The notes under the pieces are model-generated. The model was not told the DNA's origin. It saw only the letters and a list, made by a program, of their open reading frames with translations, and ran no database searches. A stretch of 46,347 bases of DNA, counting the filler, from Catajapyx aquilonaris (Eukaryota): assembly GCA_000934665.2 (NCBI GenBank). It is 2 parts of 2 records of this genome, joined end to end, with 100 filler letters (N's around TTAATTAATTAA, not from the genome) between each part and the next. Parts side by side here need not be neighbours in the genome. Positions count along the whole stretch, not along the records: positions 23,228 to 46,347 come from JYFJ02005742.1; 1 more part is not named here. One strand, given 5' to 3'. Each line of letters begins with the position of its first letter. The stretch's first letter is position 1. The position numbers and the translations under genes were made by a program. This document shows, one piece after another, positions 15,198-45,082 of the stretch.

Positions 15198-17671
15198 TTT
15201 TCTTCTGGTGTGGCTTCGGTCCTTAGGTGAATTCTACATCATTAGGCAGGTGAAGTTGGCCTTGAAGGACAACATCATAACCAGGGGGTCAACTTAAGCC
15301 AGTTTATTATCGGGAAAGAACAAAGGTGAGTGTCTGATCTAGATTAGTGATGGGAACAGGCAGGTACGGTTAGCACCTACTGATTTTTCGCTACTACCAC
15401 GCGGGAAACCACGAAAATGACGAAATGACTCAAGGACGGATGCCGCATTCCCAGGATGTCTTCCTTATTTTTTGCTAACCGCGACCACGTGCCCTTCGTT
15501 GCCCTTGACATTGTGCCAGCCTGCCAAAATGTGAGCAAATCGGTGCTCATTGCCCCCAAGGGCATTTCGCAACTGGAGTGTTTTGTAGCTGAAAATGTGG
15601 CTGTACCCCACATTTATTTCGGGTTCGTTCGAATCTAGAGCATGCTAGATGTTTGCCAGAAACTAGAAGGGAGGACATTGCCCACATGTAAATCTGACTG
15701 AAACGAGGGAAATGCAGAACGACCCCCTTGCGGTCTCCCCAAAAAATACCCAACCCTCAAACTCAATCAAGACTAGTTGTAACCAAATCGGTCTCCATCA
15801 GCCTTTCTTGACACGACTTGTTAAAAACTGTCCTAATAATACTGATCTAATACCACGAAACAGATGTACTTACCAAGGTCTCCTTATAAATAATTTAAAA
15901 AATGGAGCAGGAAAAAAAAAACACTATTCACACTGGACAAAGGGATACAATGAGATGGTCTCACAAAAAGGTAGGATTTTTTGAGGGTAGTTTAGGATTG
16001 GATGATGAGAGGGGACAGTTGAGGAGAGCGCGTGACTCCTCGGGGGAAGATACTAAGGCTGGTTGCGATTGTGAGCGACTTCTTAAGTGAGCACCGAGAG
16101 TCACGTGACGCCGGCTAAGGTGCTATAATAAGCTGGCACAACGCATGCTTCTGGCGATGGAAGAATGACGACATTCAATGAGACATTCTTATTGGTTGAC
16201 GGGAGTAACTGTCAGCAAATCCTGTGTGGACAAAATTATAGACAATGATTTTTTGGTAATATTGAAAAAAAAAGGAGGTTACGTAATTTTGACTGAGGTG
16301 TGTGTGATTGTCAGTGCCTTATTACAAGCTCTAAAATGTGTTACAATATTCAATCAAGGACACGTTTCATAGATATGTGGCCAGATACCTTCAATGGTAT
16401 CGGGCATTGCTGATTATTTGCCGAGACAAGACTTTTTAAATATTACATCACGGTTTTTATTGTGCATTCATTCTTGTACTGTCTTAGTTTTGTGTCGACC
16501 AGAAAAGATTTGCTACCAGCTACTTTGTAAAACAGAAGACACGTTCGAATAATCATGGTCAAGTGGGTGTTTACTTCGTTTTTTTCATACTCTTATTTGA
16601 TGTCTACACATGGATATTTCACGCATGGTATTCACGGCGTAAATACTATGCTCATATCGTGACAGCCCCGATGACATGCAGAGAATGTACTATTATGGCA
16701 TGCTTTGAACTTGACTAGCATTCGCTTTTTACTTGCACAGTATGTTTGCATGCATCATGAATGGCACTGGAATAAACGTTCTCTACGATGCAATGGCACA
16801 ATAATAACCTTTAAAAATTTCTTCGCGAATGGAAACTTCGTGGGTTTTAATATATTTACAGACATTCTAAAGAGAACGGAAAATTTAGCTGCAATGTTCG
16901 TGCCATGCAATACAATATTTCAAATATGCCTACAGATACCAAGAACATTGCATTTATAGGCCTACAAAAATAGGTACGGAGTCATCGCTAATAAGACATA
17001 TCAAACTTATATGACGTCAGAGTATGAAGCGCTTCTGAGCGCGCCGGTCAAACTCATGCATGAGTGTTTTAAGTGTTACACAGAGTAGGAGAGTGATAAA
17101 ATGATAGTGGACTGACCCTCTCCAAATATAGGGATGCACTATGATATCCTCTAACATATGGGTCAATAGTGAAAAAAGGTGCAATTTCATTTCCAAAAAA
17201 AATGTAAATGTCCTTTAAGGAAATAATTCTTAAATAAAAATAATTAGTTATTACCTCTGGTGTTCCCACAAAAATAACGGCCGAGACCGTAGATTTATAT
17301 TTCACCTTTTTTTGTAAATTATAAAAATGCTGTATCTACAGCTGTATACACACAGTTAAGAATACAGTCTACTTGACCTTGACGAACTAAGTGTGGCACA
17401 GGGTGTATAGAACCGAACCAAGTGGCTAGCACAGTTCGCAATATAAATATAAGTAATACTTCAAATCGCTTCAAATGCAATGAAACAAGAAATGTGTAAA
17501 TTCAGAGTATACTCGAGACCTATCCGTATGCTTACATCTGACAATAAGTCGTGTACAGCTATGAGTGCATTAGAAACATGATATAGATGGTCCAAAGCAT
17601 TCAAATACGTTATTAAAATCATGTCCTTGAACATCTTACCCCGCCTGGGGGCGCCTGTGGACGGGTAGTGT

Positions 17672-23127: not shown

Positions 23128-23227
23128 NNNNNNNNNNNNNNNNNNNNNNNNNNNNNNNNNNNNNNNNNNNNTTAATTAATTAANNNNNNNNNNNNNNNNN
23201 NNNNNNNNNNNNNNNNNNNNNNNNNNN
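23128..23227. other. Assembly gap with an artificial six-frame stop linker
   Basis: 100-position N block with TTAATTAATTAA embedded at 23172-23183. Confidence 0.95.
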
Positions 23228-23253
23228 TATCTTCCTTCCTTCCTTCCGCACAG

Positions 23254-25179
23254 ATCTATTTGGAGGGACCCTATGGATCAATGGCACAGACGTGGAGGGA
23301 CTACGAGGTCTCTGTCATCATTGCGGTAGGGGAAGGGGTGCTGACCTTCATATCAGTCCTGGATGATGTGGTGTATCACGGAAACATGGGCATCCCAATG
23401 CCCTGTCAGAAGGTGAGTGGTTGCCACATTTGGATCAAGTTCACCCCGTTCGACTGTAGTTTGTGACATGTTAACAAACTAGTTTAAACGGAATTAGTTA
23501 TAAAGTTTTCATAAAATGAAATATGGAGAAATTGGACTTGCCAGATCATTTGTTTTTTACAATGGCTTCCTCCTTACTGGTTTGTATGAAATTTTTCTTG
23601 AAGGTTTATTTCATATGGTGCACCAGCTCCCAGAAGCATTACGAGTGGATGATTGAATACATGCGAGAACTAGAGAGAATAGACACTGCTCGAATTCTGT
23701 CCACGTTCATCTGCATCACTGAAGCCACAGACAAGTACGACCTGAGGACCATCATGCTATACCTGTGCGAGGAGCACTTCCACAAGGTTCGACACAGGTC
23801 CCTCTTCACTGGTCTCAGCACCCAGATCCACTTTGGGGAGCCAGCCTACAGGACCTTCTTCACCTCCCTCAGGGCCATCTACCCCCACGTGAGCACTACC
23901 ATTATTCTTTGCTCTGGTTGTTGCATCCAGAGTGGTGGATTGCCCAAATTGGCTGCATACCAAGTGCTACCCAAAAGTTCCCGAAATGACACCAATACTT
24001 TTGAACCTCTTATAGTTTGTCGCTACCACTCCAGGTAGAGCTGCAGGTGACCTTTCTGAATATCTCTGCTAAGTGGCAGCATCTGCCGTTGAATTGATCA
24101 CTTTATGTGGGGGGGTTTTGTAGTGTCGTCTTCGGTCCATTCAGCGATTCTATCGGGGGTTAAATTGGTGACCTGAAAGACCAGCATCAAGTTTTGCTTC
24201 ATAAACTTACTTGACAAAGGTTCTCAAATCTACTTCCTTTCAGCTTAATTTTCATTTTCGGGAAAAGAAAAAGTTGCAGGGAGGTAAATTTGGCGAAAGA
24301 GGCGGCTGAGGGAGGACAGTCGAAGGAAACTCATTCAGAAGTGGCGCAACAACAACATCATGACTACGCCAGCTCACAATGCGTTTGCTGTGAAGCAGTT
24401 TTGGGCGTCACAGTCATGATGATTCTCCCTTACCCGCCTTTTCATCGAGATTTAGCTCCCTGCGACTTCTTCCTTTTCCCGAAAATGAAAATTAAGCCGA
24501 AAGGAAGGAGATTTAACTCCGTAAACCAGAACCACGAAGAATCACATCCTGTGCTGAGATCCCTAACAGAAAATGACTCCCAACCTATATACCAGTACTG
24601 TATATGTTACAATGGGAACTACTTCGAAGGTGACGGAGGAAAATTAGGTCTGTGGTATAAGCTAACATTTCAGGAAGAAAATTATTTCGCGAACTTTTGG
24701 GTAGAACCTCGTACATGAGAGGGTCCATCTGCCTGTTCAGAAAGGAAGCAACCATCATGGCAAGTTTCACATGTGGCCATGACTGTTGCTCGTTCTAATT
24801 GGTGTCTTCTCTTTAAATTGGTTGTTGGCATGAACAATCCTTACATTTCGTCTTCATGACCTACCCATGTCACACCACCCTGCCCTTGAGAACCGTTAGT
24901 TGCAAAATGGGGCGTTATTCAAATTGTCCGCCTTACTCTCAATTCCAGCATACCTGTTTTGCAACAAGGACTCCCTCCCAAATTGCATTGACATTGAGCC
25001 ATGTTTTCATGTAATCAGTTGCTAATCAATATTATTATCATTATTTTTTAAATTTGCAGGTGAAGAACTTTGGCGTGTACTGTGCAGGGAGCTCGAAGAG
25101 TAAGAAAGACCTGCATGATGTGATTGCCAGGGTGAACGAGACCAAAGGTGGTTACTTCGAGTTCATCATGGTGAAGTGA
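23254..25179 (+). CDS. Duox: 3' end (last three exons) of an upstream tandem Duox-like paralog, 5' part lost in the gap
   Basis: Exons 23254-23412, 23604-23888 and 25060-25179 have the same lengths (159/285/120 nt) and highly similar sequence to 43774-43932, 44161-44445 and 45109-45228. Frames are open and splice sites intact. Confidence 0.88.
23958..24713 (+). mobile_element. Internally deleted mariner transposon relic
   Basis: TA-flanked TIRs (ccaagtgctacccaaaagttcccgaaat / atttcgcgaacttttgggtagaacctcg). Transposase remnants are PPFHRDLAPCDFFLFPKMK (YSPDLAP.DF-like) and CICYNGNYFEGD. Confidence 0.88.
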
Positions 25180-26384
25180 ATGCGGAGTTGGGCTTGGGCT
25201 TGGGCCAGGAAGAAAGAAGGAGGAACCAAGACACTTCTCTCACGAGATTTGGTTCCTGGAATATGTCATCCTAACCATTCGCAGTACCATTTTGTTTGAT
25301 TTGCAAGGTATAGTTTGCTGTGCAGCTAGTCCATCAAAAAAGACGAATTTTCAGTGTTGTTTGCCTGCATGTTACTTGTTTATTCTGCCATTAAAGCGTG
25401 GTTAAACTGTGATTATTTAGAGATGTGAGATCGATGTCAAAGAAGGCATGAATTCAAATCAGCGCCTATGTTCTCGCCCTGGTCGGTGAATCGGATTTGA
25501 ACCGAATTGTCTCAACCAATCTAGGAAACTAATCATAATTATGTTTATAATAATATTTAATGCATGGAATTTGAGGATGGAAAGTCGGTATGATCTCCCT
25601 GCATGCAGCCATCTTGTATATTTATTGGTCGAGGGTTGTGAGGTGTGGCCACAGATTCTGTACAGGCAAGTGTGGTACCAGTACCAGACGTGTGTTAGTT
25701 TCAGTAACATAATTATATGATGAGGAACTGCTCGAGTTTCATCCTTTTCAGTCGACTCAAGCTGAATCGGTAAAATACTTCAGAAAAATCTGGAGATGCT
25801 CAAAAATTACTTTCCATTATCATTGAAGAGCCCTGCAATGAATTTGACATGAAAATATACCAACACATAGTGTAGTCATGTCATCTAGGCCTCTAGGGAG
25901 AAAGAATATGCCTCAAAATAATTATAGTCACTTGCATCTTAACAATCGGAACAACAAAACTTGCATGCGTGAATTCCAAGAATCCAAGATGACATAATCA
26001 GCCTTGTTGGTCAGGCTCCTCCTGACGAGGGCGGTGTTGACATCAAGTCATCAAGATATCAAGTCATCATTTTACACCTCAAGTTGCTGCACGCAACCTA
26101 ATGATTCAACCCTGTCAATGGTGCCATGAATTATTATTCAACAACGATTAATTGTTGATAAGTGCATTACTGTGGGAACAGGCCAGTAACCCCTGATGTT
26201 GCCATGGAAGCCAATATTGAATAAATAACAAACCAAGAAATTATTTAGGTTTTTACAAATACACTATGGGGATTTTTAAATGCCAGATTTTAGCATATGA
26301 AGGAATGCAGTGTAACAAATTGGGACGTATAAGTAAGGCGCCTCGGAGCAAAAAACTACAAACTGAAAAAATATGATTGTAATA

Positions 26385-26875
26385 ATAGGCGTATTCGGCA
26401 ATTCAGATTATTCTGAGATGCGTCACGTGATATCTGAGTTGTTAGCCCTGCCCCTCAGAAGATTATTGCCGAACGGCCGAACTGAGAGACCCCCCTACCC
26501 GCCTCTGCTGCATCCCAGTGATATCCGATGCCAATGTTCGGGTATTTCGGTGCCGTATTTCGGACGCTTGCGGGTAATGGTGCGGGTAAAATGAAAATGC
26601 GGGTACCGAGGCGGGTACAATCGGGTATTTTCAGGTCCTCTCGCGGGGTTTTTGGGCATTTTTCATTGGCAACACTGCTGAATCCATAACAATAATTTGT
26701 TTGTTAATTGTTTCTCAGCAAGTAAGTCAGGTCAGGAGTACACTAATTGTAAGTTCCTGAGCTTGGGAAGTCAGGTAGGGCGCATGCGCACTTACTTCAG
26801 GGGGCGTGGCACCTGATTTGCCGAACATCCAAACTGCCCAGAAAGTCAGATTCCTGAATTGCCGAGTACGCCTAT
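26385..26875. mobile_element. MITE between the two Duox-like genes
   Basis: TIRs ataggcgtattcggcaattcag / ctgaattgccgagtacgcctat. Confidence 0.75.
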
Positions 26876-27185
26876 TATTGAATTCCATCAGTGCATGATC
26901 TTTCAGGATGGCCCCAAAATTTCAATTGGATCCAGTGCACTTGTTAGACGTGCTCATGTTCTTTCTAGATAGGTTTATAAAATGTACTTTCAACCAAATA
27001 TTCAAGACTCGTCCTGCTGACTTCGAGCATCCATTTCACCAATTTACTCCCAATTACTTGGAAGTCGATTACAACCTTGTTTGCATTGTTGCAGGGGCAT
27101 CGATGCACGGTTGCTATGTGGTGTGGCATCCCTGCTTTGACCAAACAAGCATTTGAATTTGGGTGGGAACCGTCGCCAGGCAAGT

Positions 27186-27191
27186 TCAGTT
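27186..27191 (+). promoter_or_regulatory. Candidate initiator (TCAGTT) of the Duox-like gene
   Basis: Matches the arthropod Inr consensus TCAKTY and lies about 30 nt upstream of the signal-peptide ATG at 27217. It is a short motif and could be chance. Confidence 0.4.
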
Positions 27192-27216
27192 GGAGAGAAT
27201 TGTTCTGAGAGAGAGG

Positions 27217-30200
27217 ATGTCGCCCCCAGAGGTTCTTCTCCTGGTGCTCCTGGGCCTCCTGGCATCGAGGGCTACCCTTGCATACGGTCAGTGTCTGAAC
27301 AAGGCTCACTCACGGAGATGGCGTAACTTTCCCGCATATGCCGCTCGATTTCCCTGCTCCCCAGAAGCATTTATTTCGCCACATTTTTCGTCACTTTCCT
27401 CCATACAGAGTGTGTCAGAGCAGTCAGAGTCACGGGTCAAGAGCACGCAGGGGGGTGGGGAAAAATCGTAGGTGGCGACAACCCCTGTCAGTTTTATCAA
27501 ACAATTAGAAATACGGGAGTCATCAATTATTTTATTATGGCGTGACGTCACCTCCTTTCTGTTCGAATTGACTGGCGCGGACTGGCAGGTGCCGTGGGTT
27601 GAACGGCTTTTTAGCCTTGCGGGTTGCACTGAAAAAGGTGCTCTCATGAGCCAAAACCACGGGTCAATACGTGACGATAATCACCTTTATTTATTAACAT
27701 TTTTATATTTGAAAATGCAGGTTATTGTCGATATTTTTAAAAGGCAAAACAATTATAATCTCTGCTTCCGTGGAACCTAGGATGACTGTTCTTTTTCAAA
27801 TATACGTATATATAGCTATTTTAAAGGCGCTTTCAACTGTACCTTGCACTCTTAATTTATATGGTAAGTTTAAGCTTGAGAAATGCAAAATCTCTGGATG
27901 AGGGTCATAAACACTCTCGTGATAGACTACGACACTACGTGGCAGGTCAGTTAAGGGTAACATGCTGGTTTATAGGCTTCAATCAACATAGCAACAGTGA
28001 AGGCATTCATTTCCCCGAGAAAAGCTTGAAGTGATAAATCGTATATCCCGCATATAACGCTATCTAGCTTATAACGCTACTTTCAGGCTGCCCCTTGAAG
28101 AGCGTTATGTCGAGGTTTTACTGTAAGCACATCGGATATAAGCAAGTAGAAAGGTCGATCCCTTCATATTTCCAGCAGTGCCATTGTACAAGTTCAGTTG
28201 AATCCGGATATAACACACTTGTCTGCTATTCTGACTGCACAAATCTGCCCGCCTTTTTCCGCTCCCAGCGTCAGGCGCCCTCAAAAGGCGTCAAGGGCGC
28301 CCCTTTCGTAATTTTAGCAGGAGGGCAATGTTTCCCCCCCGTTGATACCCCACTGCTGCCACTATACAGTTACTACTACTACTTTTTTTTTGTTAATGTG
28401 GTTGTTTCATGCTTCTCTTCTCTAGCACAAGATGGTGACGAAGTAGTTCCTGAAGGCGATCCCGAAGTCCTTCCAGATCCCGAAGTAGTTCCTGAAGGTG
28501 ATCCCGAAGTAGTTCCTGAAGGCGATCCTGAAGTAGTTCCTGAAGGCGATCCCGAAGTAGTTCCTGAAGGCGATCCCGAAGTAGTTCCTGAAGGCGATCC
28601 CGAAGTAGTTCCTGAAGGCGATCCCGAAGTAGTTCCTGAAGGCGATCCCGAAGTAGTTCCTGAAGGTGATCCCGAAGTAGTTCCTGAAGGCGATCCCGAA
28701 GTAGTTCCTGAAGGCGATCCCGAAGTAGTTCCTGAAGGCGATCCCGAAGGCGGTGATTATGGCAGTCCCGGAGGCGGTGATTATGGCAGTCCCGGAGGCG
28801 GTGATTATGGCAGTCCCGGAGGCAGTCCCGAATCTCCTGGCGCAACTTGGTGAGATGAGGGCAGAACAAACAGTGCTGCCTTTCTGGTCATTTTCACCCT
28901 AACATTATATGGGATTAATGTAATGCCAGCATGCTTGCACAGTAACGTGTGCGAAGCTGGCTCACCACCTACCTCGGATCGAAGTGAAATTAATGGACTA
29001 TGCAGTACTCTCAATGGACTCTTTTGGATCTTTTTACTCTGCTCATTGGACCCCTCTAGTTTCAGAGATATTCAGGTTCAAAGTTTTCACGCCAAAACAT
29101 TTCAATTGCGACTCTGCTCACACCATTCGACATGGCCGTCTGAAATTAATGGACTATGTATTATGTCCCAAGGACTGCCAGACCCAGGACTCCGTGTCGC
29201 CAGATTAGGTGAGAGTATTCACCTGAAGAAACAGCTTTGCTCATATCCCATTGATATATTTGATCTGCTGTACTCACAAGGGAACTGGAAGAGTGCTGTA
29301 AATGGAGTTGGTGTATGAAACTTGGCACAATAATATAGGCAGGTAAGTTATTAAACAAAATGCAAGCTGTTTCTGCGAATGCACAAGGTCAAAAGTTATG
29401 ACCTCTTGGACTCACAAGGGGCACTTTCCAAGTGCCACTCGCGGATTTTCTTGAAATTCGGTGTATTGGTAACCCACCCAAATGGATGAAAAACTCACCT
29501 ATAAAGTTGCCTGCTCAAAATGACCCTGTGACCCCCTTTTTTTTTAGGGGAGCAGAGCCCCCTAGATGTTAAATTTTTTTTAGACCGACGAAAGGTTCTG
29601 TGAAAACTGTCAGACAGTGTCGTCTTACTTTTATGTTGATTGTGTACTTCCCACGTGCGACAATCTCGTAAAGATATGTGATGTCTCTGACCAGTTTGCG
29701 TCCCCCTCAGGCCCGTGATACAGTACGCCTGGTTTAAAAGAACGTAAATGGAGGACAGGCCTGCAGAATTTCAGACACCTGTTCCGTTTCGCTTCAAATT
29801 AGATAAAGATGACTGGTGTGCATTATGTCGTGCAGTAGCCTATTCCTAAAATGCAGTTGGTGTAAGGATCTCCTGTGATTCTCCCACTTTTTCATTGAAT
29901 CTACCCCCTCTGGAATGAGTTTGTTGAGTATAACCTGATTTATTAAGAGTTCAGGCTTTTGAGAGTTCTTCCGTACTATGTATCTGAAAATATGACCTTT
30001 TCCCTAAATGGTATTTCTCAATTTCTTTAATTTGCACGGTCATTTTACATACATTCCTCTGCGTTTTAGCTTGCGACTTGTTTTCATTATGTAAGTTATT
30101 ACTCTGTGACTACAAGATCTGTAATGTTTTTAGTTTAGTTTCATTTTGTCTTGAAAATTATTTCCATTGCAGTTTTTAGGTTTTACAAGTCAGTTTCGTC

Positions 30201-33200
30201 CAGTAAGAAAGCATTTCGTTTCTGTCCAACGTTGCTCTATTGACATAAATATGTCTTGAGAAAATGTCGTTTTTTATAAGCACAAATATATTTTGTCCTT
30301 AAGTTGTGCTTTAGTAGGTTATACCCCTATTTCTGTTCTCTTTTTGAGACATGTACGTATGTAGCACTGTCATCAGGAAAGCTCGTGCGCCTGGCTAGAG
30401 TGCTGCCACCGTGTGATCAGCCACCAGTGCGTTGCTAACCGAGATATCTTGGCATACCTCGAACTTGTGCATCGGGTAACTTGCAGTTACATAGTGTAAA
30501 CTACAATAATTACAGAGGCTCGTAACATGTTTCTGTTAATTTCAGATGGCTAGGTCGGATGGGGCAATTACAATCGCAGTTGAAATGCTTTTTTGGGCAA
30601 CCTTTGAAGCCAAATATCTCTGAAACTAGTAGGGTCCAATGAGCGGGGTCAAAAGGTACAAATAGTCCATTGAGAGTAGTGCATAACCCATTAATTTCAT
30701 TCCGAACCGCCGTGGGTGGCGAGCCAACTTCACACTTTCGGCCACTTCCTTGAAACCGAATATTTCTGAAACTATGCGAGTCCAATGAACGAAACGTATA
30801 GACCTGGTAGTCCTCGGGACGTAGTACATAGTCCATTAATTTCAGACGCCCACGTCGAATGGTGTGCGCACAATCGCAATTGAAATGTTTGGGCATGAAA
30901 ACTTTGATCCTGAATATCTCTGAAACTAGAGGGGTCCAATGAGCGGGGTAAAAAGATCCAAAAGAGTCCATTGAAAGTACTACATTGTCCGTTGAGTTCA
31001 CTTCGATCCGAGGCAGGTGGTGAGCCAACTTCACACCCATACGTTGGATGGGTTAAGCATGGCAGGAAGATAATATTGTACAGTGAAAAACACATCAATG
31101 AAATTTATTATCAATACAATAATTCATAATGGTTCTTAGGTGCGTAACTTTTGTCCTGCCAAATGTCAATTTGAAAGCATATTATGTGGCCTTCAGAAAA
31201 ACTTAATCGGTTTGATGAAATATTGCACATGCTGCATCGATGCATGGATGAGCTTGCATTCCTGCACTTAACAATGTTTGTAATGTTTTCAAGTGAGAAT
31301 AATTCCTCATTACCTGAAGCCACTTACAAGAAAGCAGCAAGGCAATGGCCACCGAATGTATGTGGAACATGGAAAGAAACGTCAGGAGGTAAGTATAATG
31401 AGTGTGTCAACCATTGTATTGATGCAGTAGCCACCCTTTCTGAGTTTGTGCCCATGTGATTTGAAAGTACAGTCCCACTTGCAGATTTTGGGTATCGTCA
31501 TAATAACATTAGCTTTCAACTGGATTACCCAAGGGAACAAGATATGAACTCAGGAAGGGAACTGAAATGGTGGTGTTGACCCCCCTTCCTCTGTTCTTTC
31601 CAGTGAACAAACCACGACGAGATGTGTGGGGCAAAACAGGGAAAAAGGAAGGATTTCTTCGATGGCTGATTGATGGCTGCGACTTTTACGATGATTCTTG
31701 CAAACCAGCGCCATTCAAGATGATTGAGTACGCCCGATTTGACGGATTTGGCAACAGCAGAGCCTTTCCAGAGAGAGGATTAGCAAGTGAGCGCTCCTTT
31801 TTTTAAAAAAAAAAAAAGGCTGAAAATAAGGCAGTAAGCTTATTAGGATTAGAAAAAGGGCAGCGCATACTGTGACACTGACCGTGTTCTTTTCTGAAAA
31901 ATAATCTGCTTCTCATTAGAGAGAAGGCAATAGTGTGTGTGATAGTGACTGCCGTAAGACAGTGTCATGCAAAGTGATATTCCTACGTTCGAAATGCGCC
32001 TACCTTCTTTTTTTGCAACTGTTGTTTAGCCAGCCAGTGATGACTCCGGCCATGCATCCAACAGCCATCCCATCCTGTTCTATTCTGTTTTGTTATGTGG
32101 CATGTTTGGAATGGATCGCCAGTCCCGCCAGTCCTGGAGCTCCCTATAATACATTATGTTACGAATTTCATGTCACTACTACAGTATTATTTTATGGTCC
32201 CATCACACAGGGCACTTGGATGGGCAGTACATATTCCCTGTGTGTTGTGAGATAGCTAAACTCTGATGATGATAATGATAATGATAATGATATTGATGAT
32301 GATGATGATGATAATAGTGAAAAATTTTGACCTCAGGATCAGCCATGAATCAAGTGATTACCTACAGTTATGGAGACAAAGTGTCAGCAGCAGACACTAC
32401 ATCAGGCCGCCCAGATCCACTGGAAATCAGCGCGAAGTTGTTTGGTTCTGAACATAGTGCAACCAAGTCAACAGAAAGCGGAAGATCAGTCCTCCTGCAT
32501 TACTTTGGTGAGAATTTATCGCCAATTTACATCACTTGTGGTGATTTAGAGAATATTGTTGTGGTCCGTTTCTCGAGTTGATTAGCTGGGTAGGAAAAGC
32601 ACGTGAAAGACATTGTTTGTCCATTTTGGGATATTGGGAAGAACTCAACTCAGCAGAAACATTATTCAAGTGCTTAGTACCGGTTGTTTTGAGCAAAGAA
32701 AATGCGTGAGCATGTGTCCATCCGTCTTCTCACTTCTGGACAAACTTAACCACATTGACTTACTTCCTGTATTCCCACAGTCGTACTCATTTTCTGTTTA
32801 TTACATTATGACTGCATCAACTTACACAGGGAAATATGTTGTCGAGGAGATTCTGAACAGTCGTCAGGCAGCATGCCCTATGGAGCACCTGGACATTGGC
32901 CCTGGTGATGAGCCAAAGATGCCATTCAAGAGGACCATATATGACCCTACAACTGGAACCAGCATGACCAACCAGCGTCGGCAGCTTAACCTGGTGACGC
33001 CCTGGATTGATGGCAGTGCTGTTTATGGGACTTCTCGCATGTGGGCCAATGTGCTGAGGACACAGCACGATGGCTATTTGGACCCAGATGGGAAGCTGGC
33101 CACTGATCCATCTGGAGAGTACCCGGAGTACAACTGGATGCGAATGCCCTTTCGCAACGACCCATCCGTCGTCAACCACTCATTCTTCAAGCAGGAGAAG

Positions 33201-35979
33201 CAACGCTTTTCAGCATCCCGTCTTCGTGGATTTGGACATGTCAATGGCAACGAGAACCCAGTGATTTTTGCCATCTCGACACTGTGGTTTCGCTGGCACA
33301 ACGAGGTGGCACAGTACCTCAGAAAAACCCATCCGCACTGGCCCAATGAGATATTGTTTCATGAAGCACGCCGCTGGGTCATTGCCACGATGCAAAGCAT
33401 CTTCCTGTACGAGTGGTACCCAGCAACCTTCCTGCAGCCCCTCCCGGCTTACCATGCTTACGATTTTCTGGATGACCCACAGATAGAGGCCATGGTGGCA
33501 GCTGCCACCCTTAGATACGGACATGTGACCATTCCCCCAGGTCAGTTGCTTATACACCTTTTCTCTGCTCCTCCTTCCAGCTCTGCCTCTCTGATAGTAT
33601 ATTATCCGCTACACATGCCCTTAATGATTAGGTCACGTTGGAAACCGAAACGTATGTTGTCGTCTCCCTTGTTCATTTTTGTTGAACTGGATACACTGGC
33701 TTTAAAAAAGTAATATTTGGTTGAGTGTATTTTTCCTCGTCTAAGTAGTACGATGTTTGTTTGCTACAATATTATTGGAAAGAGTTATTTCCCCTTAGTT
33801 GGAGGAAGGGTAATACGAGGTAATCCTCTCTGGCGATTTTAACGCTCGTGTTGGAATGGAACGACAAAGCTCATTTTTAAAATCCTAATGAGGTTTCCAC
33901 AGTACCGCTGTTAACCGAAGCAGTAGGGGTGGAGTGGATAGGGTGTCCGACTGCTAATCGGGAGGTCCTGGGTTCGAATCCCGGGCCGGCAACCCTGACC
34001 GTTGTTTTCCACGGTCTTTCTAGGATAATTCCGGGGTCGATTCCGTATATATTTTTTTTTTCATTACCCCACGGGGGGAGTTATACTATGGCCCCTAGTC
34101 TGATGACCCGGGGTAAGCTATCCCGGGGGCAATCACCATGGCAGCATACGTAAAAGGATAGCAGTAAACAACCAGTTACCCCAGGGGGCAAGCTACCCTG
34201 GGTCACCAGACTATATACCTATACTCCTTAGGGGGGGGGGGGGGGGGGGTNGGGAGGGGATGTGCAAAGTGCAAGTGCAATGTCTCTAATCGTCATTTTG
34301 TGAACTCCCCCGGGTGGCTTAGTCTGCCGGAAATTGCCACCCGAAACGAAGCCAGAGATGGCCCAACTCTGCACGAAAGAAGGTGGGAACCCCGGGTGGG
34401 GATTGAACCCGGGACCTTAACTTCCGTGGGCGCGCGCGTTACCGCGGCGCCACTCCGTCTCCCCGTCGATTCCGTATAATAGGCCACAGCCGCTTCCTTC
34501 CTTCCCTATCCTTGGAGGTTGAAAGGCAATGCTGGGCCAACCTCCTTAAATATCAATTATAAAGTACTGCAGTTAGTACATACGGTTAGGTAGTACGGCT
34601 GTTAGAAAACAGACTGCGGTCTTGGGCGGAGGACAATAAGATATTACCGTAAAACCTGGCGGGTTTTAGAAGGACCAGATGCTGTATGGACCACATATTC
34701 GTTCTCACAGAGTTGATACAGAACTATACTGCGAAGAAAAGGGGAAAACTCTACGCACTGTTTGTGGATCTTGTGAAAGCGTTCAACTCGGTAGAGCGCA
34801 GCAAGCTTTTTTCAAAGCCATTGACTCGGGGAGTCAGTCAAAGTAGGTTGCACATGCAAGTTTTGTCCCGTTATAAGTACTATACTGATCTTTCGCCTGA
34901 TATTGGACTCTCCCAATATTTCCTTTACTCTCTCCCCCTCCCATATTATGTCCGTTTGGTGAGCAATCTCAGAAATGCATCATATTCTCTTTATGTTGAA
35001 AACTACAAATTCCTACAAATTCAGCTCCCCCACTCGCACTTCCTGTACACTCTGTAATAGTAACGATAATTGGTCTCTTTATCGCTTAATTTACGATTGC
35101 CACTTCTTTCGGGCAATTACAAGGGATAAACTGGTAGGAATTCCAAAACTTCCTCAGGGTATTCTTTCCGCTGGTTGTGCTTATTATTTATTGATAATGG
35201 TTGCCTTCCATCACATCCTCTCTTCCCACCAGCCAATTATATTTATCAGTAGTTGTACTTTTTTTTAAATGCACATGATTGGCTGACAGGAAGCGATTTC
35301 GGGGCTGAAGGTTTCCATACCTTCCCGGATACTTTGTACTTGTCGTTTGAACGCAATTATCTCCGTAACCTATTAGTAACTAGTCGAGTAACTAAGTAGA
35401 CTATCTATTAGGCAATGCAGTATATCTCGAAAACTGTGCTTGGCAGCACAATTCCAAGTCCAGATATGGAATCAGCACAGAAAGTACTATAGGAATCACT
35501 ATTCACATCTTCAGAAAGAACACAAATATTTAAAAAATCAACGGTATATCTGCAAAACACGTCTATTATTTTCTCGCGAGCCATGTATGACCCAGGATTG
35601 AAACTGAACATACTGAACCTTGTGCCGGTCACAACATACTAGTGTCACCAAATGCAGCTGATGTACCGCAAATTCATCACTAATTATTGTCGGGGTCCTA
35701 ATTCTTGGGCATGTGTCTAGAGCCAGTGACCAATGAAATGTGAAAATAATTTTAGTTACATTTTAGAGAAAAACGAATCTTCTATAGACTGATTCTGCAG
35801 GTGTTTCACGCATCAGCACTCCCTATTATCCGGGTGCAGATTATCCGTGTTGCGCATCGCCATAAAATAACATCTTAAAGTAAATGTCCAAAAGTATGTC
35901 AATATGTTTCGCCAACCTTGGTGGTATCCCCCCCCCCCCCCCTAAGAGGGCCCATGGCTCGAGCACGGGGTACAAATTA

Positions 35980-36011
<32 letters not shown>

Positions 36012-39000
36012 GTTTCACTAACCAAGTAATATGAGACTTTCCCCAGAAGACCAATTTAAAATCTATCCCATGGTAAGTTTCATTATTTTTGATTAACTTA
36101 AACCTTATTTAAAGCATACAGCATACAGCATGTACTGTAGTTCTTTTGAACCTCTGAACAGCTCATTTTACTGCATCTAGGACCATTTGCGGATCATCAA
36201 TGTTTTACGATTATCATGGTATCATACGCCGATGCACATTCAATAGCACAGTTGATAATAATAAGGAGTGTACAGTGCACGTACCTTCTCCGTTATGAGT
36301 ATACATCGAGATTTCCTTCTCAGGTTAATCGGCATGTGCAAGGGACAAAATATGAAATGATATTTACGTAGCAACTTCTATTGTCACCTAACTGACTGTA
36401 TAAAACTTTCCAGAAAGTCACAGGGTCATATTTAAAGAACATCTGCAAAAAAGGGGGGGGACGACGACACGAAATGTGTGGCTGAATAATTATGATGTAT
36501 ACATAAATATTACGTACCTGTAACTTTTATTGCAGTCATCAACATGATGCACCCAAGCCATGAATTCTGCAAGTTACAACCGTTCAGAGTATCTGGTAAA
36601 GTGAGTGTCGGAGGTGCCCGCTTGTGCCAGAGCTACTGGTTGGGACAGGATGTTTTCCTGCAGGAGTTGGACTCTCCTACTGGACAACATGACTCGGTCA
36701 TGCCGGAGTACATCTTCTTGGGAGCAGCCACCCAAACGCCCATGCCTTATGGCATGAAAATGAATGACGATATGAGAAGTAGCTCTCTTCTTGTCCATGA
36801 CTTTTTTCTGGATATTCTGACAGGAGTGGTGCATGTCTTTACCTTGTTCCTATACCTCCAAATTTTAGAGTACATGTACGGTCCGATGTCATTCAGCCGT
36901 CGGGACCTGGCCGCAATTGACATCCAGAGGGGCCGGGACTGGGGTCTGCCTTCATATGAAGAGGCTCTCAGATTATATGGGCTCATGAGTTATTTGGAAC
37001 GGAAGAAGCTGGACCCAAACAAGATGGTCGATATTAATAAATGGGTGAAAGACTCTGCAGTCTCTCCACAGGTAAGTGAGAATCACACTCCTTGTTGTTG
37101 TTGAGCATCAATTATGAGTACTTGCCCCCATATTCTTTGTTGCCTTGCAGCTTTTAAAGGAAGCAGATGACCTTTACAAAGGCAAACCTGTTGACCTGTT
37201 GGTGGGTGGTCTCCTGGAGGGCAGGAAAGGGTATCCTGGACCACTGTTTGAAGAAATGGCGAGGAAGCAGCTCCTGTCCATACGTGATGGAGACTACTTC
37301 TGGTTTGAAAATGCTGTCAACAAGTGAGAAACTAATAAGTGCTAATAATTATTTGTGTCGGTTATGCGTTCAAGAGATTCAGTTGTTAAGGGCAATAATT
37401 ATAGTTCAAGTTTCAAACTGCGAGCTTCAATGCCACTCATTCATTCGAAATAAATTTCGCTCTTTTCAAGCTGGTGATAATTCCAAATGAAATAATTATT
37501 GAAGGCTGAAATGTTTGCTCAATGAAATATTAATTTACTTTACAGACGGTTCAGCGCAAAGCAGATTGCCCGCCTCCGTGAAGTATTTCTTGGTGATCTC
37601 ATTCTCTTTTTGTTTGAAGTTGAGGCGGAAGATATTCAAGAGCGTGTTTTCTACCTTCCTACTAAAACAGGTACGTTCCGGAAGTGGAGATGATTTCCAC
37701 TGGGCATCCATGTTTTAAGCTGATGTGTTTTCCTTACACCATTACTCCGCATCCAGAAATGCTACCAGAAGGACACCCGTGTGAGACAAATTTCCCAAAT
37801 ACGGAGAGATGTTATGTCCCTGATCCCAATTGTGAAGGGGGTCCGATGAAGAAGGAAGGTGACATTAATTGGAATTGTTATCACGAAAAGGACACTTCGA
37901 GTGACCCTGACAAAATGGAAGAATGCACACCTCTGCAGACGATGTCATACTTTGACGGCAACATTGTTAGTGTCGTCTTCACTTGTGTGGTCTATTTCTT
38001 GGTCCTGGTGGCCCTGTGGGGACTGCTCAAGTTCCAGATCGCATCGTCCGAGCAGGAGTGGGAGGTGAGGGTTCCAGAACTGCTGGGACTGGTCAGCCTG
38101 TCCAGTGTCTACGGGACGAACATGCCTACCTTCGCAGCCATGGAATTTCAGGGAATGAGAGGGGGCTCCAGGTCTGTCGTTCTCCTCTTCAACACGAAGG
38201 ACAAGACCATCGAGTTGTGGGGACCTCTGGGAGGGGAGATCCGGACACTCAAACTTTCCCTCTTCACCAAAGTCAACATTGTAATGGGGGATGATGGCCA
38301 GCACCTCATCATCAAGGTATGCCCAGTACTAAGCAATTATTTACGTGCGAAAACAGGAGCCAAATTTCAACAAATTTATTGACTTGTTCATTGCTGTTGC
38401 ACTGTGTGCACAGTGCAGATTGTCTTGGAATAGGAACCTAAGACAGAGTGTCCCCCTTATTGTCCCCCACACCCTTTCAGGTGCCACACGAGTATGACAT
38501 GGTGTTGGAGTTTGTGACGTCCTCCCACCGAGATGTTCTGATGTCAGCCTTGGCTCACTTTCTGGATGAGAATAACATAGGCTATCTCTGCCGGAATGTG
38601 AAGCTTAGCGATGCTATGGCGAACGCCATCACCTTTGAGGACCGACAGGATATCCTGAAGCGTTACTTCAATGTCATAATTCTTCAGGCGCAAAGGGTGT
38701 ACAAAACTACAGCAACATTGCTCAGCCCGAAGGAAATGCGCAAGCGATACATGGAAGTGGCCAACGTGCAGCTTAACGAGCTCGAATTTGCGGAGGCCCT
38801 TGGGATGAGCTCCAAGTCTATCTTCGTTCAAAAGGTACTCGTGACGTGATGGGTTTCAGAATATATTTAGCTAACATATTTTCGTGACATTGGAAACGTG
38901 ATACAAGTTGTTGATTCCATGACTGCTTCATGACTGTACAAGGGAGACCAATTTTTTAAATTTAATAATCCTGCCTGTCTAATGCATGGTAGTATCCTTG

Positions 39001-40563
39001 GGCACAGGATTTCCACCTGTTATGCAGGAGAATCCGTGCAATTTCCTCCAGTGCAAACATGTGCTGAAACCCTGTGAGTGGTTAACGCAATGTGGTATTC
39101 TCATATCCACTATGAATGCATTCACACTAGTTTTACTGGCCGCTTGGTGTTAAATTATATTTTTGAGAGCTCTGGCAGACATATGTCCGTTTCACTCTTG
39201 CAATCGTAGAGTGGTACCTGATACAGTTGTACTCTTGGACCTGTGTTTCCTAGCTTATTGCAATGACAAGGTCGCATGAGAGAAGTTTTAATGAATGCTT
39301 TCTCGCAGTTGTTTCATCTGGTGGACAGCGACAAAGACGGATATGCAAGCATACGTGAATTCCTGAACTTCTTCCTTGTCTTCAGCAGAGGTATGATGAT
39401 TGTGCTGTTTCACATTCACCACTGAATCGTAGCACATGATCTTACTCGTTTGGGCTGGTTCAATTGGGGATTTCCCCAAATGCACAGGAGCACCGCAGTC
39501 GTGAGTCATTCGAGATGTCTGAAATTAATGCAAAACAATCGGAAGTTTTATAGATTGATTTTGGAATTGATCATGTGGTATATGTATGTGTACATTTTCA
39601 CAGTGCTACTTAACCTTTGTCCTACACTACAGAGTGAATGAGGCCTTTTCTGCATCTGTCCCAGTTGATTAAGCAACAACAATAATTTTGAGTGTCAGTC
39701 CTGCGTTGCCCTTGCACATACAAATGTGCTGTTAAATTCCAGCTACATTCACAGCTAGCCCTTCTTTTCTACTAGGTACTGCCAAAAGGAAGGTGAACAT
39801 GTTGTTTGAGATGTATGAGACCCGTGACACCCGTGGGAAACTGGGCTTTGCAGAGTTCAAGCAGATCCTAATGTGAGTGCTCAAAGGTGCTGAAGATGCG
39901 AGTGGAAAAGCGCTCTTATTTTGATTTTGTTTTTTGTGGCCTTGCAGAAACTTGGCTGACATATCAAATGCCAATGTCAATCGCCAGAACTTGTCTGAAG
40001 CAGTAGATGAGTTGATGAAGAACGCTGGGATATTTGAACAGACAGAGTTCAGGCCAATCGATCTGGAGAACGTTCTGCAGAGCAACAAGGACCTTCTTGG
40101 ATACGCCCACCTGGACCTGTATGGGCCAAACATCCCAGAAACAGGAGGATCCGTGGCCATGGCCATCGAGAGCAAGAGGCTGAGCTACTTCGATGCAGCC
40201 ATGCTGGGAGCCCTTGACCTCCACAAGTTGTTGCTTCTTCTTCACTTTTTTCTTTTTTTCTTAATCACTGTCAGAAACGTTATGGTGCCTTACGTGTGTT
40301 CTTTCGTGAATGTAGTTTGGAACAGGAGCAGAAATCTGAAGTAAGTAAGAGAACTAGCAGGGGAGACAACGTGGTCCTCCTGACCCTGGAAAAAGTGAGG
40401 AAGAGCAAGTTGGGCTCCTTGCTGACTGTCATACAACTTCACTGGGAGAAGATCTTGTGTTTTTTTATTGTCCTCGTAGCCTCTGTATGCGCACTGCTGT
40501 ATGGCTTAAGTAAGTCTTTCATTATTTAATATTATGCATAAAATTTGTGTGCTACTTATTCTG

Positions 40564-40595
<32 letters not shown>

Positions 40596-43500
40596 GGCTT
40601 GAGGTCTTGAAACTGCTGCATTGCAACATTAAGTGATAATGTAACACACCTGGAAGTGGATTCACTGAGATAGGTTGCTTTAACTCAAGGGTGCTCAGGT
40701 GTCTACCTGCGCCATGACATTATTTTTGTATTTCCTTAATCATCACTATTTTGCTTCTTTTCAGTGGTTGCTTCAGCACCATTCCATACGCTCCAAGCTT
40801 ATGTGTTTGGTCCGTCCTGGACGGTATCTGTACTGTCAGGAAATGCCGTGTTGTACCTCCTTTTCTTCCTTCCGCTCACCAACTGCCGGAACCTGCACAC
40901 ACACATGCGAGAGACATTTCTCTCCAATGTCATACCCTTCGACTCCATGCTTTTCATTCATAAAGTCATTGCCTGGATGGCATGCCTCTTCATGAGTAAG
41001 TACTCAGTATATCAGCAGTATTTGCAGGGAATGTGCATGCCACCTGATGTAATTATGTTGCTCTTTTTTATTTGCAGTCGTGCATGTGATATGCAATATT
41101 GTTACTTTTGCAACCCTGTCAGGAACTGAGCCTGAGGAAATAGACTGCATGACTTGGGTGCACCTAGAGTGAGTTTGTTTTGGTATTATTAGTACATTCA
41201 CTACACTTCTTGTGTTCCTTTCTATTTGGCACATAATTATCACATCCATTTTCACATGCAATATTTTACAACATGCATTTTGCCATCAACCAATCTCGTC
41301 ACCCAATTGCGAGGCTGCAATGAAGGCTCATACATGTACAGAATGTGCCTGTGGATGATGCCGCACTGTAGCGTACGCCACAGATTGCACTGGAAATTAC
41401 AATCACAAAGTACACCATGGCATTTAATGTGCCAGATGCAGTAGTGGGAAGCATTCATTGCCGGCAAGCCACACTTAATAAGAAACTGCTTTCAACACTC
41501 ATAGTCTTAGGAGTTACCAAAGTGCTTTATGTTACGTTGAATTGAAAGCAGGTGTAAGGGCCATTATACTGTTGTGTGGTGAACACGTCTTCTATTGCAG
41601 TGAGTTACACGATCATTTCTGAGCCACTGCGGGATAGCCAGGACCAATAACAATTGGCACTTTTAAAAATGCGAATGAACACTGATCAGAGTGTATCTCA
41701 GGGAGAAGTCTTACTGGATGTTCAGTAACATCACAGTATCGTTAAGTGTTAGAAGGCTTTTGGTATGTTTTTGCTTTGCACAGCAACACTGCTCATGAGC
41801 AGTAACATGAATAAGGCATTGAAGTATAACTTATTAGTATCATTGTTCACACTTTTAAGGAATGTCCATTTATTAAGTCAAACTTGCCAGAACCATGTGC
41901 AATGCTGAGATGTGCCAATTATGGATGGAACATATAGATCAATCAGAATGCATAATATTTCTGAATAATAATTCTGATTTTTATGCCATGTTTTGCTTTG
42001 TTTTCAGGACGCATTTGTGGGTGGATTTTGATTACTTCATGTGGCGCACCACAACTGGTTTGACAGGCAATGCCATGGTCATGATAATACTGGTCATGTA
42101 CTTCTTCTCACTCCGAATCTGTCGGCGGAAAGCCTTCCGCTGGTTCTGGGGCACACACAAAGCTTACCACATCATGTACCCTTTGATGATCTTGCACATC
42201 GTGGGAGACTCTCTGAAGGTAAAGTGCTGCCTAACGGTGTGTATAGTTCATGGAAGGCAAAAATAAATATGAAATTCATCGATTGCAACATAATTATCAT
42301 ACCAATTATTTAAGTAGAGAAAATAATACAACTGACATAATTTTACTCATGTCCTTTCCATGTTTTGTATTATTGTATTTATATCACTTGTACTTACTCT
42401 GCCCTTCTTAGGTCCCTGACCACTCCTGGCTCCTGATGACTCCTCTGATCATCTTCTACTTGGATCACTTTGGCACCCTCAGTCGCCAGAAGAGGCCCAT
42501 TGAAGTCATTGACTTTGAGCTACTACCTTCCAGTAATATGCCTTCTTGCATGATTGATAATATTATTATTATTATTAAGGTTGGACGGTGTGATCATTGG
42601 CAAATCCAGACCAAGTGATTGATCCTTGCTATTCCTTGTTGGTGGCAATGCACCACACAGGACTGCCCCATTCCACAACCATAGTTTCTGTGGAGCTTGG
42701 TATGGAAGATGGTTAATAAAGCCTCGTGCTTTATAGGGGGAAGGTCAAAAAGCACTTTTGGCCAATTAAACACGCATGGACACACGCACCATGTTATTAT
42801 CGAGGGTCGGCAAATTGTTGGGTTTACTAACGATCCTGCGTCCCAGCCAAAAATAAATGAGAATGGACACTCAGGTGTAGCCACGTACTGTTATTTGGAT
42901 GGATTAGCTGATCCACCAAAATGAAAGGTGACAGGCTGACTTAGAAATTAAGAATGAATAATAATGATAATTCAAGAGGGAATAGCGGGTCATTCACCCC
43001 AGCAACGGGTGTAAATGAGACGACCCATTGGAAGGAATAATATTAAGGCCAGGGTCATTTGCATGGAGTGACTATCATTTGCCCAATGTAACATTGCAAT
43101 GCTATGTTCATTCCACTTTTGGGAGGAATTCTTGAGCCAATTTTGATGCCAAATGGTCCTTTCATACTAGGTGCTGCTATTTCCCAAACAATTTTTTTTT
43201 TTCATGATTTAACTCGTTACATGGAATTTAATAACATGGCAGCACTTTCTCCTTTATCCAGCTCCAGGCCACTCCTCATTGAAATGGCACCTTTGCAATA
43301 CTCCATTAGTGACGAAGTAATACATGTGCGTGTTATCAGTTAACATTTGATGAAAACAATAAGGGGGAAATACTCTGATGTCCATGGCGATTGAATAGTC
43401 ACAAGAGATGAGCACATATTGTGATTAAAACCGGATCCTAATGCACAACTGACTCTATACCTCCAGACATGATCAAGCTTGTTGTTCGTCGCCCTCTGAA

Positions 43501-45012
43501 CTTTGAGTTCAAGTCTGGCCAGTGGGTGAGGATGGCCAGCAGCGGACTGAATGCAGAGGAGTTCCACCCCTTGACCATCGCCTCTTCTCCACGTCAGAGC
43601 GTCATGAACTTCTACATCCAGGTGCTTGGGCCCTGGACCTACAACATGAGGCACCTGTACCAAACCAGGAAGACCAGGAGGAAGAAGTACCCCAAGGTGA
43701 ACTATACACAGTCAGCTGCTTCTTGTGACTGCAACCTTCCTCTAATCTTCCTTCCTTCCTTCCTTCCGCACAGATCTATTTGGAGGGACCCTATGGATCA
43801 ATGGCACAGACGTGGAGGGACTACGAGGTCTCTGTCATCATTGCCGTAGGGGAAGGGGTTCTGACCTTCATATCAGTCCTGGATGATGTGGTTTTTCAGG
43901 GCAACAAGGCCATCCCAATGCCCTGCCAGAAGGTGAGTCGTATCCACTTATTGTAGTGAACTGTCAAATTTTTTGTTCTGACAAATCGATGAAAAGATTG
44001 TCACAGGACATATAATCGTTGCACTAGTAAGTCCAAGTCAACGACAGGAAAAATGAGATAATTTCATTAGCGTATGTTGAAAAAATTGGACTTGTAAGAT
44101 CATTACTGGTTTGTTTAAACGAAACTGAACAATAAGTAATTCTTATAAATTTTCTTGAAGGTTTATTTCATATGGTGCACCAGCTCCCAGAAGCATTACG
44201 AGTGGATGATTGAATTCCTTCAAGAACTAGAGAAGATAGACACTACTCGCATACTGTCCACGCACATCTGCATCACTGAAGCCACAGACAAGTACGACCT
44301 GAGGACCATCATGCTGTACCTGTGCGAGGAGCACTTCCACAAGATTCGAAACAGGTCCCTCTTCACTGGTCTCACCACGCAGACGCACTTTGGGGAGCCA
44401 GCCTACAGGACCTTCTTCACCTCCCTCAGGGCCATCTACTCCCACGTGAGCACACAGCTTGTTCTTTGCTCTGGTTGCTACATCCAGAGTGGTGCACTGC
44501 CCATGTCCGCAGTGTAAAGACCCATACACACAGGCCGTCGACGGTTTTGGTCTTTGGTTGCGTTGACGCCGCGGACCAATCATGACCCATGTAAACAATG
44601 TGTTGCGCATGTTTACATGAGTCATGATTGGTCTGCGGCATCAACGCGACCAAAGACCAACACTGTCGACGGCCTGTGTGTATGGGCCTTTAAGTAAGAG
44701 GGATGAGGGATGAGGATTGTTCAGTCCAGCCACCAGTCTAAAAAGGAAGCAACCATCGCATATGGGGCCATGACTGCTGTAGCTTATTGTTCCAATTGGG
44801 GTAGATGATATGAACAATCCTTCAACGTTGCCTTCATTTCCTATACCCATGTGTACTTGGACAGCACCCTGCACTTGCAAAATTGGTGAACCATGAAATT
44901 GTCCACCTTACTCTCAAGTACAGCATAACAGTTTTGCAAGTACTGTACAAGGCTCCCTCCCCAATAGCGTGGACATTGTGCTATGGTGGCATGTCATCAG
45001 TTATGCATTATT

Positions 45013-45082
<70 letters not shown>

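Follow-up and report, generated by a model that had tools for sequence, protein, structure and literature searches.

We analysed a stretch of 46,347 nucleotides (nt) from the genome of Catajapyx aquilonaris (assembly GCA_000934665.2), hereafter the window, in which a dual oxidase (Duox)-like gene on the plus strand, apparently of arthropod type, is preceded by an exon-like block of tandem repeats. The reading that we favour, with a probability of about 0.45 judged from sequence features, is that this block, the candidate exon E2, is translated as part of a Duox isoform. E2 would then be a true coding exon of the Duox-like gene and very recent in evolutionary terms. Transcription would start about 29 nt upstream of the ATG at 27217, a signal-peptide exon (E1) would be spliced to E2, and the frame would be continued via a short bridging exon, most likely 31294–31388 (E3), into the peroxidase-homology domain that begins in E4. 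The mature protein would start with a rigid, extended and polyanionic proline-rich rod of about 105 residues (three acidic residues and two prolines per eight, no basic residue), followed by three Gly/Tyr motifs and by a four-cysteine linker. Such a segment could serve as a disordered extracellular spacer or tether binding cations or matrix, and its three tyrosines might be available for cross-linking by a peroxidase; the analogy is with echinoderm and mite Duox proteins, which have low-complexity extensions ahead of the peroxidase domain. Coordinates of the features discussed can be found in Table 1.

Table 1. Features at the 5′ end of the Duox-like gene and in its surroundings (positions along the window).
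Feature	Position	Strand	Description
Core-promoter-like pair	27186–27219	+	Initiator TCAGTT, A+1 at 27188; downstream promoter element GGATG at +28 to +32, overlapping the ATG
E1, ATG and signal-peptide-like leader	27217–27286	+	23 codons and 1 base; donor ACG/GTCAGT at 27286/27287, phase 1
E2, candidate repeat exon	28426–28849	+	424 nt; phase 1 in, phase 2 out
Main array	28440–28745	+	12 units of 24 nt (EVVPEGDP) and one of 18 nt (EVLPDP)
Second array	28746–28823	+	Three units of 24 nt (GGDYGSP), then a short unique Ser/Pro/Gly tail
In-frame TGA	28851–28853	+	Closes a 165-residue secreted protein if the donor at 28849 is unused
Block bounded by inverted repeats	28949–31036		Repeats of 233 nt at 28949–29181 and 30804–31036, 90% identical (blastn)
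E3, candidate bridging exon	31294–31388	+	95 nt; phase 2 in, phase 1 out; donor GAG/GTAAGT; weak AAG acceptor
E4, first homology-backed exon	31604–31786	+	Phase-1 acceptor; EYARFDGFGN marks the start of peroxidase homology
Remainder of the Duox-like gene	32337–45228	+	Peroxidase-homology, EF-hand, ferric-reductase membrane, FAD and NAD exons; stop at 45226–45228

E2 is open in a single plus-strand frame, which is the frame set by the phase of E1. It encodes 12 EVVPEGDP units, one shortened EVLPDP unit, three GGDYGSP motifs and a short Ser/Pro/Gly tail; its 140 residues comprise 45 acidic residues, 31 prolines and three tyrosines, and none that is basic. The initial annotation of this DNA had described a signal-peptide exon spliced to a 424-nt repeat exon and proposed its fusion to the Duox-like protein. 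Phases, units and the TGA are as it described them, with the EVLPDP unit to be added, and the fusion is possible and in frame. Tandem Repeats Finder delimits the main array at 28439–28749 (period 24, 13.2 copies, 92% matches, score 545) and the second array at 28742–28823 (period 24, 3.4 copies, 98% matches, score 157). These two are the sole minisatellites in the window, the other arrays found having periods of 2 to 15.

Splice sites were ranked by a hand-made consensus score, with six homology-backed acceptors (7.5–11) and six homology-backed donors (11–16) as reference. The E2 acceptor (...tctctag/CA at 28426) is preceded by a long pyrimidine tract; its score of 9.5 falls within the homology-backed span and at the 97th percentile of the 323 AG sites found between 27000 and 32000. 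The E2 donor (TTG/GTGAGA at 28849/28850) scores 11, again within the reference span, and its nine letters are identical to those of the homology-backed donor at 32507. Both sites flank the arrays closely, the acceptor 13 nt before and the donor 26 nt after them. This arrangement bears on a competing explanation that we consider less probable, in which the block is an intronic minisatellite with decoy splice sites, never translated, and E1 is spliced directly to the acceptor at 31604; the resulting Duox would be canonical, its leader and peroxidase homology about 45 residues apart. From the density of sites at or above the E2 scores (10 acceptors and 17 donors in 5 kb), a strong in-phase acceptor together with a strong donor in the 28 nt that separate the array end from the first stop would be expected in only about 2–3% of cases, as a rough estimate. 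Strong unused sites giving a frameshifted message should, moreover, be selected against, and 24 nt, the period of both arrays, is divisible by three, as would suit a coding exon. Two further donor-like sites are present within the main array, where two GGC>GGT unit variants create AAG/GTGATC at 28497/28498 and 28665/28666 (score 11); both fit the frame of E4 and could in principle give repeat exon versions of 72 nt or 240 nt.

Several properties of the repeat itself speak against its translation and would suit an untranslated intronic array. The array is very young, with DNA identical in nine of the 12 full units, and nothing in it points to selection on the protein. The codons GTA, AGT, GAA and TAT, used in E2, are minor in the homology-backed exons of the gene. 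Only three single-base variants are found in the 12 full units, each a C>T change at one of the unit's only two CpG positions (twice at position 18, once at position 24), so that their synonymy needs no selection. The earlier statement that variants within the main array are synonymous is correct for these three changes but does not extend to the short unit, the sole length variant, which combines a V>L replacement with a two-codon deletion, an in-frame loss of 6 nt. The openness of the E2 block also carries little weight, because the main array is free of stops in each of the three minus-strand frames as well. Read on that strand, the array could be a Ser/Thr/Gly/Pro mucin-like exon of another gene, and the third-position variants are synonymous in the GSPSGTTS frame too. 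We nevertheless rejected this possibility as next to negligible: the minus-strand frames contain no Met, the GSPSGTTS frame runs into stops in the second array, the best acceptors on that strand reach only 6–8, no minus-strand donor scoring at least 8 is present in 28300–28445, and no minus-strand gene context was seen nearby.

The leader encoded by E1 was evaluated by a hydropathy heuristic, the Kyte-Doolittle mean over 10 residues. With a value of 3.46, it is the most hydrophobic among 58 ATG-initiated open reading frames on the plus strand of 25200–31603, where the next reaches 2.27. By its hydropathy, E1 is thus predicted to carry the cleavable N-terminal signal peptide of Duox, in agreement with the initial annotation. 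Its donor scores 12, inside the reference span. Using the generally known consensus motifs for the initiator (Inr) and the downstream promoter element (DPE), we found that a single one of the 75 Inr-type matches on the plus strand of the window has a correctly spaced DPE-type match, and it lies 29 nt upstream of the ATG of E1. E1 is also located 1–1.8 kb downstream of two hexamers of the poly(A) type (25390 and 26220), behind an upstream Duox paralogue ending at 25179, and therefore at the place expected for the promoter of the downstream gene. From these sequence features, we have fair confidence that E1 is the first exon of the Duox gene.

A second competing explanation, which we regard as improbable, takes E1 and E2 as a small secreted acidic repeat protein, of 165 residues if it ends at the TGA at 28851 or of 187 if E2 is spliced out of frame to 31604. 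It would come from a gene of its own or arise as an alternative product from the Duox promoter, Duox itself being made from E1–E4 or from a downstream start. The TGA is present and in frame if E2 is left unspliced, as initially pointed out, and closes the frame 2 nt past the E2 donor; an ATTAAA lies about 500 nt downstream. Small secreted low-complexity proteins containing tyrosine are common in arthropod cuticle, and in-frame ATGs with a moderately hydrophobic stretch precede E3 (31229, 31244) and E4 (31567). However, the leaders at these ATGs are poor (2.1–2.15, as compared to 3.46 for E1), and no Inr-type match occurs in 31000–31620. The ATTAAA at 29350 is the only poly(A)-type hexamer between 28854 and 31603, with no AATAAA in this interval, and the E2 donor is identical to a homology-backed donor of the Duox gene. 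Finally, a hydrophobic leader was recognised by eye at the start of all full-length Duox N-termini used for comparison, and here only E1 supplies one.

The joining of E2 to the Duox frame is the weakest link of the fusion that we favour. E1, E2, 31294–31388 and 31604–31786 together give 257 codons without a stop and place 241 residues ahead of the FDG-type motif, the two leftover bases of E2 meeting a T at 31294. The E3 donor is a consensus site (score 15) in frame with E4, and E4 carries a short W-L motif common to the mite and lacewing Duox proteins. Against the fusion stands the E3 acceptor, whose score of 6.0 is below those of all six homology-backed acceptors and is reached by 94 of the 323 AG sites of the region; one homology-backed acceptor, at 44161 (score 7.5), is also of the AAG type. 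No relatives of E3 were found, and it matches no Pfam family. The initial annotation had stressed that the donor at 28849 fits the acceptor at 31294 in the peroxidase frame. This fit is real but not special: at modest score thresholds, open candidate bridging exons exist in 28860–31603 for eight of the nine combinations of incoming and outgoing phase, so that it corresponds to chance expectation. For the 2→1 combination needed here, there are five candidate exons on two donors, and a transposon-derived candidate at 29060–29208 bridges E2 to E4 with a total score equal to that of the E3 route.

The same region also accommodates splicing without the repeat, as the minisatellite explanation has it. 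E1 joined straight to E4 remains in frame, because E2 and E3 together amount to 519 nt, or 173 codons, and the product has a normal Duox N-terminus, resembling those of other Duox proteins, with 68 residues before the motif. The E4 acceptor (score 11) is the strongest of the 323 AG sites. Since skipping these 519 nt keeps the frame, inclusion of E2 and E3 may well be alternative. In contrast, E1-E2-E4 without E3 meets a stop after 187 codons; if E2 is used, a frame-restoring exon is therefore expected. Most of the interval between E2 and E3 is occupied by the 2.1-kb block bounded by inverted repeats, without which the two would be about 350 nt apart. This block was probably inserted as a transposon-type element whose ends are the long inverted repeats; no obvious target-site duplication was seen around them.

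If translated, E2 would encode a segment of unusual composition. An octad with three acidic residues, two prolines and no basic residue should form a stiff and extended polyanion, the nearest analogues being procyclin-type Glu/Pro rods. AlphaFold2, run on the single E2 sequence, gave a model without secondary structure, with a mean predicted local distance difference test score of 58.9 and a predicted template modelling score of 0.10. This is in line with an extended, disordered segment, as the initial annotation had proposed. The sole Pfam family scoring on E1, E2, the E3 frame and E4 was procyclin (PF05887), with an E-value of 2.7e-4 and a score of 21.4 bits, the cut-off of the family being 100. 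The trypanosome procyclins (PARP) are likewise extended rods of Glu/Pro repeats, polyanionic and exposed on the outside of a membrane, but they are unrelated protist coat proteins anchored by glycosylphosphatidylinositol, and the match is compositional only.

We also compared the repeat with 1.84 billion representative sequences by using phmmer and obtained 2136 matches. Duox motifs were absent from the best 150 of them, in which they were checked, and thus no relative showing such a fusion was found there, a further point in favour of an untranslated array. The matches inspected are low-complexity Pro/Glu repeats and were rejected as homologues. Among them, many unnamed proteins from genomes and metagenomes (P0006, P0011, P0016, P0018, P0060, P0088, P0110, P0137) contain long arrays of an E-V-L-P-E-G-E-G octad, a unit almost identical to that of the main array, with the same period of eight residues as E2 and 55–61% identity over about 100 residues. 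As opposed to E2, these arrays sit in the middle or at the C-terminus of unrelated proteins. They are best read as convergence of low-complexity linkers, which suggests that the acidic Pro/Gly octad arises repeatedly as a linker.

The repeat had further been described as resilin-like. Insect pro-resilin contains Gly/Pro-rich disordered repeats whose tyrosines are cross-linked to dityrosine, the tyrosine being followed by Gly, a small residue and Pro. The three short DYGSP motifs of E2 conform to this pattern, and the resemblance appears to end there: the 12-unit main array is acidic, made of Val, Pro and Glu without tyrosine, there are no long Gly/Pro/Tyr arrays, and Pfam searches with E-values up to 10 detected no R&R chitin-binding domain (PF00379) in E1, E2, the E3 frame or E4. 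Judged by its sequence, E2 is not a resilin. Tyrosine motifs of disordered cuticle proteins are proposed dityrosine sites (PMC9612446), and a 2025 preprint reports that knock-down of Duox in the fly leaves resilin unpolymerised (bioRxiv 10.1101/2025.10.01.678482).

To place the predicted N-terminus among known ones, we examined 23 proteins from the Duox searches. An FDGW-type motif is present within the first 400 residues in 16 of them, the other seven being fragments or having a variant motif. The initial annotation held that the peroxidase domain of Duox starts soon after the signal peptide. This is true of the 10 vertebrate sequences examined, where 15–38 residues precede the motif, and the interval is 39 residues in a crinoid and 44 in an acorn worm; it is not true of five of the 16 N-termini, in which it reaches 126 residues (Strongylocentrotus purpuratus), 142 (Lytechinus), 106 (Anneissia), 107 (mite) and 83 (lacewing). 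Long stretches ahead of the peroxidase domain thus occur in other Duox proteins already, which speaks for the fusion but also means that a low-complexity extension at the N-terminus is nothing new in kind. In invertebrate Duox proteins, low-complexity sequence separating the leader from the peroxidase domain is a known, though undiscussed, feature. Our literature search found no paper on such extensions, and where a paper on Nox/Duox evolution (PMC1940245) uses the term 'N-terminal extension', it means other things.

The Duox proteins of the sea urchins S. purpuratus ('dual oxidase 1 isoform X2', P0173) and Lytechinus pictus (P0169) and of the crinoid Anneissia japonica (P0156) offer a close architectural parallel. 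After the signal peptide, they carry an extension of 106–142 residues, of low complexity and partly made of tandem repeats (A-T-N-A-T-T-P in S. purpuratus), then a short acidic stretch and then the peroxidase-homology motif. They are also among the best-scoring relatives of the C-terminal exon of the window gene (55–57% identity). In contrast to E2, their extensions are rich in Thr, Asn and Pro, of a glycosylation type rather than polyanionic, lack Gly-Tyr motifs and contain repeats that are not near-identical in protein; their models come from annotated records, whereas the splicing in the window is predicted. The mite Duox (Dinothrombium tinctorium 'dual oxidase 2-like isoform X1', P0002), the best match of the peroxidase exon (39% identity), has an acidic stretch with tyrosines within its 107 pre-motif residues and a W-L-L motif that aligns with E4. 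It differs from the window gene by the lack of a tandem repeat and of Pro-rich octads and by its canonical NADPH-binding motif.

The body of the Duox-like gene was delimited by tblastn with mite and crinoid Duox proteins as queries, which located its exons between 32820 and 44475, and by choosing junctions for maximal similarity to six reference Duox proteins. This fixed 31786/32337 and 32507/32830 on the 5′ side and 43696/43774, 43932/44161 and 44445/45109 on the 3′ side. Pfam was scored on single exons. The gene has the N-terminal animal haem peroxidase homology domain of Duox (An_peroxidase, PF03098, 148.8 bits on exon 32832–33539 and 37.4 bits on 36874–37017). It also has the C-terminal ferric-reductase membrane and FAD/NAD-binding domains: FAD_binding_8 reaches 41.7 bits (cut-off 22), NAD_binding_6 reaches 25.4 bits (cut-off 22.2) and Ferric_reduct reaches 25.9 bits on a 70-residue piece (cut-off 28). 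For EF-hand_1, an exon piece of 29 residues gives 21.3 bits (cut-off 25.4), and a second EF-hand loop looks degenerate by eye. Protein searches gave no near-identical sequence, either for the peroxidase exon (four matches from 534 candidates, searched among longer proteins, best 39% identity) or for the C-terminal exon (22 matches from 51 candidates, best 57% identity).

The site that binds reduced nicotinamide adenine dinucleotide phosphate (NADPH) is altered in this gene. GGGIGVTPF and CGP, found in each of the six reference Duox proteins, are replaced by AVGEGVLTF and CAG in exons 43774–43932 and 45109–45228 of the window gene, which by sequence lacks the canonical NADPH-binding residues of Duox. 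The first of these exons, which bears the altered glycine-rich stretch, has no Pfam match. A second Duox paralogue, revealed by blastn of the region against the window, is represented upstream by its last three exons only (23231–25179), which are 95%, 92% and 89% identical to 43751–43938, 44144–44503 and 45085–45228, respectively. It likewise has AVGEGVLTF and CAG (23242–23418 and 25054–25179), and both copies end in ...MVK rather than in an aromatic residue. Its exons begin right after runs of N at 23128–23171 and 23184–23227, and no further Duox exon was found upstream of 23231 in the window, so that its 5′ part is either absent or situated on the far side of an assembly gap. Both copies are thus candidate non-oxidase paralogues.

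This alteration weakens the proposal, made initially, that hydrogen peroxide produced by the protein itself would cross-link its tyrosines. We consider it a long shot that the gene encodes a membrane-bound Duox paralogue that has lost canonical NADPH binding, probably makes no hydrogen peroxide of its own and bears at its extracellular tip a polyanionic rod of about 100 residues with resilin-type tyrosine motifs at the end, through which another peroxidase or oxidase activity stitches it covalently into the cuticle. The protein would then be a cell-to-cuticle tether or a matrix anchor that binds cations and nucleates calcium, and not an enzyme, with a repeat number varying between individuals. 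More generally, use of the exon would mean that a disordered domain has newly arisen in a conserved enzyme gene, through expansion of a minisatellite in its first intron. Tyrosines available for cross-linking would then be carried by a member of a protein family implicated, according to the preprint mentioned above, in fly resilin polymerisation, and the N-terminal extensions seen in invertebrate Duox would gain an acidic kind that may bind cations. Should the exon be unused, the block would be a common intronic repeat flanked by decoy splice sites.

Two other observations were made in the window. On the minus strand, a series of open frames at 1554–15233 resembles, by eye only, a membrane-transporter gene of the organic cation transporter type; when the first large exon of this series was used as a query against proteins, one candidate came up, which was not significant. 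In the membrane domain of the Duox-like gene, an apparent loss of a haem-ligand His was considered and dropped, as a short exon behind a consensus GTAAGT donor supplies this residue (by eye). The second haem-ligand His of the third membrane helix requires, within 41040–41150, the use of this donor after ...LFM and of the short next exon, and reading the segment unspliced produces the false impression that the His is lost.

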